From Escherichia coli (GTDB taxonomy: Bacteria; Pseudomonadota; Gammaproteobacteria; Enterobacterales; Enterobacteriaceae), in the NCBI RefSeq assembly GCF_003018115.1, contig NZ_CP027457.1: a DNA stretch of 64,000 nucleotides. The stretch is one strand, 5' to 3'. Of the stretch, positions 39,212 through 39,850 are shown one piece after another. Every line of letters starts with the position of its first letter. Position 1 is the first letter of the stretch. The notes beneath the pieces are model-generated. The model ran no database searches. It saw only the letters and a list, made by a program, of their open reading frames with translations, and was not told the DNA's origin. The translations under genes were made by a program, and so were the position numbers.

Positions 39212-39388
39212 GTGAAACAAAGCGAGTTCAGACGTTGGCTCGAATCTCAGGGCGTCGATGTAGCGAATGGCAGCAACCATTTGAAAGTCAGGTTTCATGG
39301 GATGCGCAGTGTCATGCCGCGTCACCCCTGCGATGAGATTAAAGAACCATTGCGTAAAGCAATCCAGAAACAACTCGGTTTGAGTTAA
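39212..39388 (+). CDS. hicA: HicA mRNA-interferase toxin (type II TA)
   Basis: GTG start after AGGGAGG; 58 aa VKQSEFRRWLESQGVDVANGSNHLKVRFHG...; below the ORF-track cutoff. Confidence 0.85.
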   Translation: MKQSEFRRWLESQGVDVANGSNHLKVRFHGMRSVMPRHPCDEIKEPLRKAIQKQLGLS

Positions 39389-39433
39389 TCGCCAATTAAA
39401 AAGGTTAATGACATGCGAGAGACAGTCGAAATT

Positions 39434-39850
39434 ATGCGTTATCCCGTCACTCTTACACCCGCGCCGGAAGGCGGTTATATGGTTTCTTTTGTGGATATCC
39501 CTGAAGCGTTGACCCAGGGCGAAACTGTCGCTGAAGCGATGGAAGCGGCAAAAGATGCTTTACTGACCGCATTTGATTTTTATTTTGAAGATAACGAGCT
39601 TATCCCGTTACCTTCGCCATTAAATAGTCACGATCATTTTATTGAAGTACCTTTGAGCGTCGCCTCTAAGGTATTGCTGTTAAATGCTTTTTTACAGTCA
39701 GAAATCACTCAGCAAGAGTTAGCCAGGAGAATTGGCAAACCTAAACAGGAAATTACTCGTTTATTTAACTTGCACCATGCGACAAAAATCGACGCCGTCC
39801 AGCTCGCGGCTAAGGCGCTTGGCAAAGAGTTATCACTGGTGATGGTTTGA
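39434..39850 (+). CDS. hicB: HicB antitoxin (RNase H-like fold plus C-terminal HTH)
   Basis: MRYPVTLTPAPEGGYMVSFVDIPEALTQGETVAEAMEAAKDAL...; immediately downstream of hicA; the in-frame upstream ATG at 39413 is possible. Confidence 0.85.
   Translation: MRYPVTLTPAPEGGYMVSFVDIPEALTQGETVAEAMEAAKDALLTAFDFYFEDNELIPLPSPLNSHDHFIEVPLSVASKVLLLNAFLQSEITQQELARRIGKPKQEITRLFNLHHATKIDAVQLAAKALGKELSLVMV

Follow-up and report, generated by a model that had tools for sequence, protein, structure and literature searches.

A start codon upstream of hicA in the Escherichia coli hicAB operon forms part of the probable HicB operator

The toxin–antitoxin operon hicAB of Escherichia coli K-12 (b4532/b1438; PDB code 6HPB; Jorgensen et al. 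2009; Turnbull and Gerdes 2017) is the same locus as the one analyzed here, described in another strain. The K-12 toxin HicA cuts RNA and stops growth, and the antitoxin HicB binds and neutralizes it (PMC8138530, PMC10865869; complex in 6HPB). The operon is one of the 4 among 12 type II systems of E. coli that show the reverse gene order (PMC7167474). As relayed by later papers (PMC8138530, PMC11594946, PMC6957337, PMC10865869, PMC7167474, PMC5535158), Turnbull and Gerdes (2017) described two promoters for K-12 hicAB. According to these accounts, the upstream promoter P1 carries a CRP-S site, is stimulated by CRP/Sxy and otherwise constitutive, and gives an mRNA from which both HicA and HicB are made. 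P2 is said there to be kept silent by HicB bound at hicO until an excess of HicA relieves this repression; its transcript is described as truncated at the hicA ribosome-binding site, so that HicB alone is produced (PMC7167474, PMC6957337). The operator hicO is an inverted repeat at P2 that is bound by HicB dimers (PMC10865869).

The systems mqsRA, rnlAB, and toxTA of Haemophilus influenzae resemble hicAB in that the toxin gene comes first and an extra promoter serves the antitoxin alone (PMC7167474, PMC6957337). Whereas the extra promoters of mqsRA and rnlAB lie within the toxin coding sequence, the antitoxin-only transcript of hicAB starts just before the toxin start codon. In contrast to mqsRA and rnlAB, the toxin is disabled on this transcript solely through the lost context of its ribosome-binding site.

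The window, a stretch of 64,000 nucleotides, is E. coli chromosome, and its positions 39212–39850 are the chromosomal hicAB operon, the founding E. coli member of the family. The toxin gene lies 5′ of the antitoxin gene in the same orientation, and the gap between them is 24 or 45 nucleotides, depending on whether hicB starts at 39413 or 39434. The ORF list gives the longer form of hicB (39413..39850, plus strand, 145 amino acids), directly downstream of hicA on the same strand. The two genes are as follows.

39212..39388, plus strand: hicA, toxin gene, 58 amino acids, GTG start
39434..39850, plus strand: hicB, antitoxin and repressor gene, 138 amino acids as in K-12 RefSeq and PDB; the in-frame ATG at 39413 would give 145 amino acids

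HicA is identical to chain A of PDB 6HPB at 55 of 58 residues (E value 3e-34), and its alignment to this chain places the catalytic histidine, His-23, within the motif GSNHLK. HicB is identical to chain B at all 138 residues (100%). The Pfam model HicA_toxin scores 24.8 bits on HicA, slightly below its gathering score of 27, so that membership in the HicA family rests on near-identity to a characterized protein. HicB matches PF15919 (HicB_lk_antitox) with 32.8 bits (cutoff 27) and HTH_3 with 31.4 bits (cutoff 23). Among the NCBIfam models, none matches HicA, HicB, or the peptide of the upstream ORF discussed below. From the 95–100% identity to the K-12 proteins, we infer that HicA of the window also cleaves RNA and arrests growth and that HicB neutralizes it directly.

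Of 5426 complete E. coli genomes, 5415 contain a match to a 941-bp query covering the locus, at up to 99.9% identity, and the annotation beneath the matches in E. coli RefSeq genomes reads yncJ-hicA-hicB-ydcR. K-12 MG1655 has the same arrangement with b1436 (yncJ), b4532 (hicA, 58 amino acids), b1438 (hicB, 138 amino acids), and b1439 (ydcR); K-12 coordinates equal window coordinates plus 1470074. The flanks rlhA, yncJ, and ydcR are common to both strains, and 456 aligned bp from the yncJ start to the hicB start contain five differences, two of them upstream of hicA. The control elements considered below (GGAGG, the palindrome, both extended −10 elements, the hicA Shine–Dalgarno sequence, and ATGTGA) are shared with K-12. 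The allelic differences are L26V, R31M, and L52Q in HicA and 38985+20 T/C and 39126 A/G in the intergenic region.

Identity to 6HPB and the gene neighborhood in K-12 and RefSeq thus bear out the initial annotation, which had recognized a toxin-first hicAB type II module. Its 58-residue hicA with a GTG start agrees with the ORF at 39212..39388, and the order that it called the reverse of most type II modules is documented for hicAB (PMC7167474). The locus, its reverse order, the GTG start, the structure, and the two-promoter regulation have all been published. As it stands, the finding is of little consequence, being that of a known and correctly recognized system. The present comparison adds three small points, namely that the start codon of an ORF upstream of hicA is part of the probable operator, which accounts for that codon; that an operator motif, GTAAnCA-N4-TGnTTAC, is common to loci from Escherichia through Aeromonas; and an apparent origin of the P2 transcript within one group of genera, as set out below.

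The start region of hicA contains two features that can be read directly from the sequence.

39202..39207, plus strand: GGGAGG, Shine–Dalgarno sequence of hicA, 4 nucleotides 5′ of the GTG
39210..39215, plus strand: ATGTGA, a start-stop in which the G of the ATG is also the first base of the hicA GTG

The GTG start and the GGAGG-like Shine–Dalgarno sequence are kept in all 15 loci compared. In a modeled P1 leader, the duplex of the hicA Shine–Dalgarno sequence with its anti-Shine–Dalgarno counterpart has −11.1 kcal/mol, and opening the hicA site costs 9.8 kcal/mol. A published catalog lists hicA with the Shine–Dalgarno sequence GGAGG, a DtoStart of 12 (optimum ∼14), and an abundance of 0.021 ppm; in the same study, GUG initiation is poor at short Shine–Dalgarno spacing and best near a DtoStart of 14 (PMC9841429). 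The more likely means of keeping toxin translation low is therefore the GTG start together with the short spacing between Shine–Dalgarno sequence and start, two features conserved in every genus examined. The ATGTGA of hicA resembles the AUGUGA start-stop sites at GUG starts described in that study, and hicA stands in its table of atGTG-starting genes. It differs from these sites in that no start ambiguity is predicted, the AUG lying at a DtoStart of 10, too near the Shine–Dalgarno sequence (PMC9841429). Among the 15 loci, only those of Escherichia and Brenneria have an ATG adjoining the hicA GTG, the one in Brenneria being in frame.

The neighboring gene rlhA is, like hicA, among the atGTG-starting genes (PMC9841429). 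Its ORF in the window (rlhA, also ydcP; 36665–38668) has 667 amino acids when read from GTG, and the gene calls on E. marmotae contigs give 653. A REP-like palindromic element lies between rlhA and yncJ at 38720–38756; it matches the Rfam family naRNA4 below threshold (28.8 bits, gathering score 59.5).

K-12 RefSeq starts hicB at the second ATG, equivalent to 39434. The ATG at 39413 lies seven codons further 5′ (MRETVEI-MRYP...) and is preceded by AAGG at a distance of 8 nucleotides. This seven-codon extension, with a GAGG or AAGG motif resembling a Shine–Dalgarno sequence, is kept in Escherichia, Citrobacter, and Raoultella; it is missing in Pantoea, Serratia, Brenneria, and Superficieibacter, where MRYP contains the first methionine. 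In the latter four genera, the spacer between hicA and hicB holds a GC-rich hairpin, CCAGCCC-N4-GGGCTGG, which E. coli lacks. A 2025 paper reports that a plasmid-borne hicAB operon contains a noncanonical terminator (PMC11878559). The candidate Shine–Dalgarno sequences of hicB are weak for both starts (−3.0 kcal/mol for the 138-residue form versus −3.4 kcal/mol for the start at 39413). A weak sequence for hicB versus a strong one for hicA agrees with the result of Deter et al. (PMC5535158), in which two of three RBS calculators give higher initiation for the toxin than for the antitoxin on the P1 mRNA.

For the promoters, we ran a rough σ70 scan of our own over 39100–39206. The two best candidates both have an extended −10 element and are tied on score.

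39185..39193, plus strand: TGaTATACT, extended −10 element, probable P2; predicted start ∼39200–39201
39133..39141, plus strand: TGcTATTTT, extended −10 element, candidate P1; predicted start ∼39148

The start predicted from TGaTATACT lies 1–2 nucleotides 5′ of GGGAGG, at the edge of the hicA Shine–Dalgarno sequence. Because this position fits the published truncation at the hicA ribosome-binding site, the element is probably the HicB-repressed P2. TGcTATTTT falls within a 15-nucleotide block (39131–39145) that shows no change across eight Escherichia sequences, although the adjoining bases 39146–39157 vary, and is a candidate for the distal promoter P1. Promoter and terminator prediction upstream of hicA returned nothing. 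A search of 38990–39260 for CRP-S (TGCGA-N6-TCGCA) or canonical CRP half-sites gave no 16-mer with three or fewer mismatches in 10 positions, and alignment of candidates by eye to the 22-mer CRP consensus gave nothing convincing. As the region is identical to K-12 except for 39126 A/G, the missed CRP-S site reflects a limit of the search and not of the locus, and the published site must be more degenerate than three mismatches.

Two further inverted repeats lie upstream. The repeat TCTGGAA-N6-TTCCTGA at 39079–39098, ∼125 nucleotides upstream of hicA, does not fit the CRP or CRP-S consensus; it is recognizable in the hicAB loci of Citrobacter and Raoultella, the yncJ-side intergenic regions of which do not align. 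The repeat TTTGC-N8-GCAAA (TTTTGCAAATTAGCGCAAAG) at 39056–39073 is near-invariant in eight Escherichia sequences, with a single change, in the spacer, found in the two E. marmotae loci only. It is CRP-S-like with half-sites 2 bp too close and could serve a divergent yncJ promoter.

A palindrome located between the two candidate promoters was missed by a standard inverted-repeat finder and found by a purpose-written script.

39162..39179, unstranded: perfect palindrome GTAAACA-CTAA-TGTTTAC, probable HicB operator hicO

In the scan with this script, it is the sole strong inverted repeat near the hicA start; if one mismatch is allowed, its arms lengthen to 9 bp (39160–39181). For comparison, we gathered loci from other species through their HicB proteins and added loci from E. 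marmotae and from plasmids. The motif GTAAnCA-N4-TGnTTAC stands ∼40 nucleotides 5′ of the hicA GTG in 14 of 15 chromosomal loci from seven genera (Escherichia, Citrobacter, Raoultella, Superficieibacter, Pantoea, Serratia, and Brenneria). The plasmid search with HicB added relatives in Aeromonas, Haemophilus, and Arsenophonus, which support the operator motif and are uninformative on the GGAGG of Escherichia. An Aeromonas plasmid carries GTAATCA-AAAA-TGATTAC at −51 from the hicA start, and a plasmid of Haemophilus parainfluenzae carries ATAAACA-AAAA-TGTTTAT. From Escherichia through Aeromonas, both 7-bp arms are constant except at position 5, and the flanks diverge freely. Because the palindrome is conserved across genera and the literature describes hicO as an inverted repeat, 39162–39179 is probably the HicB operator. 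Within the predicted P2, it overlaps the region of the −35 element and the spacer, as expected for autoregulation at the level of sequence.

The promoter that surrounds the palindrome differs among genera. A near-consensus promoter, TTGACA-N17-TACTAT, holds the palindrome in its spacer in Pantoea, Serratia, Brenneria salicis, and Superficieibacter, and its transcript is predicted to keep the full hicA ribosome-binding site. The position of the P2 −10 element is occupied by TATAAT in two Citrobacter loci and in Raoultella and by TATCCT in Citrobacter Cu233. Judging from these alignments, a P2 transcript serving the antitoxin alone seems to have arisen in the lineage of Escherichia, Citrobacter, and Raoultella.

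The initial annotation had further pointed to an out-of-frame ORF that starts behind a GGAG and overlaps the start of hicA. The elements of this upstream ORF are as follows.

39172..39336, plus strand: out-of-frame upstream ORF from the ORF list, 54 codons, peptide MFTLLIYSAAGR..., overlapping nucleotides 1–125 of hicA
39158..39162(63), plus strand: GGAGG(T), a motif resembling a Shine–Dalgarno sequence, 9 nucleotides 5′ of the ATG at 39172; read directly

The ORF is thus present, out of frame, preceded by a Shine–Dalgarno-like motif, and overlaps the hicA start as described. Its ATG, however, occupies 39172–39174 and not 39171, its length is 54 codons instead of 48, and the GGAG belongs to a fuller motif, GGAGG(T).

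Both the motif frequency and the length of the frame are within chance expectation. The arrangement GGAGG-N5-10-ATG occurs eight times on the two strands of the window versus 12.2 ± 3.3 times in mononucleotide shuffles, and 6.4% of the out-of-frame ATGs within long ORFs of the window open a frame of at least 54 codons.

Within Escherichia, none of the lineages examined with an intact hicA (E. coli, strain E69, E. marmotae, and E. whittamii) has lost GGAGG-N9-ATG, and the frame is open for 54–56 codons in such lineages. The E. whittamii sequence keeps the motif although 5 of the 12 bases directly 5′ of the GGAGG have changed. Outside Escherichia, neither the GGAGG nor the long frame is kept. 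The GGAGG is confined to the genus, the aligned position in other genera being without it; two Citrobacter loci have ACG as the start triplet (the divergent E. coli SCPM-O-B-8794 has GTG); and the frame read from the homologous triplet in other genera stays open for 6, 6, 6, 7, 17, 23, 23, 23, and 23 codons.

These data also bear on whether the 54 codons encode a functional small protein that overlaps hicA, for which the ATG, the strong Shine–Dalgarno-like motif, and the frame of 54–56 codons open in Escherichia with intact hicA could be taken to speak. Among Escherichia, the overlap region contains 20 distinct substitutions, of which three are synonymous and 17 non-synonymous in the frame of the upstream ORF, with many radical exchanges (W to R, F to S, Q to P) and a loss of the stop codon, which is not conserved. 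The same 20 sites divide into 10 synonymous and 10 non-synonymous in the hicA frame. The pattern in the upstream frame is that of a non-coding frame. The peptide finds no match in Pfam, and in a collection of 15 billion proteins, the K-12 peptide is represented by just eight unnamed automated calls (Logan, ENA assemblies), with none in the NCBI or UniRef records of that collection. As the ORF is moreover not found outside Escherichia, we regard a functional small protein as extremely improbable.

The position of the start codon offers a simpler account. The ATG consists of the last base of the operator spacer and the first two bases of the right palindrome arm, and because an A-rich spacer is followed by TG, an ATG arises almost automatically. 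As this ATG runs into a half-site of the probable operator and the GGAGG occupies a promoter position of more distant genera, the 54-codon frame is most likely accidental. We therefore consider it probable, with good though not full confidence, that the window holds a K-12-type hicAB operon with hicO at the palindrome and that the upstream ORF arose by accident from the operator and promoter sequences, without being a gene or serving as a dedicated regulator.

In this operon, HicA would be a small RNase toxin that is encoded first and neutralized by HicB, and HicB, through its C-terminal helix-turn-helix, would repress transcription at the inverted repeat hicO. The CRP/Sxy-stimulated P1 mRNA would yield both proteins and the HicB-repressed P2 transcript HicB only, with excess HicA lifting the repression. 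By our placement, hicO would lie at 39162–39179 and P2 at 39185–39193, with a start near 39201. The ATG of the upstream ORF would be the A that precedes the TG of the right operator half-site, and its GGAGG would sit where distant genera have the −35 element and spacer of the operator-enclosing TTGACA-N17-TACTAT promoter. The length of the ORF would stem from an alternative frame of hicA that happens to lack stop codons. The corresponding ATG of the distant genera lies upstream of the start predicted for the TTGACA-N17-TACTAT promoter and therefore would not be transcribed from it.

The initial annotation had suggested that the upstream ORF could influence the translation of hicA. In its explicit form, this would be a damper specific to Escherichia, in which ribosomes loading at the GGAGG and the AUG at 39172 read in another frame through the Shine–Dalgarno sequence and GTG of hicA, occlude the hicA ribosome-binding site on the P1 mRNA, the sole transcript from which HicA can be made, and so lower the amount of toxin. 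The Shine–Dalgarno motif and AUG of the ORF lie outside the predicted P2 transcript (start ∼39201), and inside the P1 mRNA only if P1 starts upstream of 39158; the candidate TGcTATTTT, with its start at ∼39148, would place both in this mRNA. In the P1 leader modeled from this start, the site of the ORF is comparable with that of hicA in opening energy (10.7 versus 9.8 kcal/mol) and in Shine–Dalgarno duplex (−10.8 versus −11.1 kcal/mol), with an AUG instead of a GUG. Within Escherichia, GGAGG and ATG are kept where hicA is intact and are lost alongside the P2 −10 element in a lineage with a stop codon in hicA. Moreover, the hicB Shine–Dalgarno sequence is weak (−3.0 to −3.4 kcal/mol) and calculators favor toxin initiation on the P1 mRNA, so that extra damping of hicA would make sense.

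However, the arrangement of GGAGG and ATG is missing outside Escherichia, and the operator palindrome already accounts for the ATG and for part of the Shine–Dalgarno motif. The 9-nucleotide spacer corresponds to a DtoStart of ∼17, beyond the optimum of ∼14 (extrapolated from PMC9841429), and a hairpin of −8.4 kcal/mol, described below, buries elements of both the Shine–Dalgarno motif and the AUG. Because GTG and short spacing are conserved in all genera examined, the upstream ORF is also less favored as a brake on hicA. Known regulatory ORFs that act by occluding a ribosome-binding site are alike in placing a Shine–Dalgarno sequence and AUG upstream of a main gene and overlapping its start out of frame; the ORF at hicAB differs in its conservation within a single genus and in a start codon that lies inside a predicted protein-binding palindrome. 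An influence on hicA translation is thus unsupported by the comparison, in which the ATG overlaps the probable operator, no genus but Escherichia has the GGAGG or the long frame, and coding constraint is absent, and we judge such a damper to be unlikely.

Also unlikely, to a like degree, is the evolutionary form of this idea, according to which the control region was rebuilt in Escherichia, with the ancestral −35 element TTGACA lost and two extended −10 elements gained, and thereby created an upstream ORF with a strong Shine–Dalgarno sequence and AUG that limits HicA production from the P1 mRNA. If true, translational control by the ORF would come on top of the transcriptional scheme already published, and damping of hicA would modestly refine the picture of how the toxin is held below the antitoxin in toxin-first modules.

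If transcribed, the palindrome could also form a structure in the RNA.

39159..39182, plus strand: RNA hairpin with a 10-bp stem and a 4-nucleotide loop, −8.4 kcal/mol, z score −3.2 versus shuffles

This hairpin buries the GAGG of the Shine–Dalgarno motif of the upstream ORF and the UG of its AUG, and it is the centroid structure of 39148–39260. Being stable for its size and the dominant structure of the modeled leader, it might act as RNA, stabilizing the P1 transcript or modulating hicA translation independently of the upstream ORF. However, conservation of a DNA operator accounts for the identical sequence, and the start predicted for the distant genera lies 3′ of the palindrome. The Shine–Dalgarno sequence and start of hicA are untouched by the hairpin, and the cost of opening the hicA site (9.8, 9.7, and 9.1 kcal/mol) is the same with or without it. 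A role as RNA is accordingly very unlikely, and the palindrome is better read as the operator. The whole 39148–39260 leader was also considered as a structured RNA and rejected (z score −0.63 versus shuffles), and an Rfam match to a snoRNA was dismissed as spurious.

Some alleles of the hicAB locus carry deletions or show decay. In strain FDAARGOS_536, a 445-bp deletion, 39167–39611, begins within the operator palindrome and takes away its right half together with P2, the whole of hicA, and hicB sequence up to about the middle of the gene; the same junction, base for base, occurs in 1060 of the 5426 complete E. coli genomes, and RefSeq labels the remnant a partial hicB pseudogene. A 22-bp deletion within hicA, 39329–39350 (strain EC01307), leaves hicB intact and a frameshifted pseudogene annotated as “mRNA interferase”. 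At least 199 genomes contain precisely this junction, and the number is a minimum, as few SNPs are tolerated by the 36-nucleotide query. Loss of the toxin with retention of the antitoxin has also been reported for hicAB of H. influenzae in a bioRxiv preprint (10.1101/330480), which parallels the EC01307 allele. Frameshifted hicA genes are found in Escherichia sp. E1V33 and Citrobacter Cu233. E. coli SCPM-O-B-8794 combines a stop codon in place of Trp-9 of hicA with an 11-bp deletion that removes the P2 −10 element; at the upstream ORF, its motif reads GGATG instead of GGAGG and its start triplet GTG instead of ATG. Lineages with a dead hicA also have a decayed control region.
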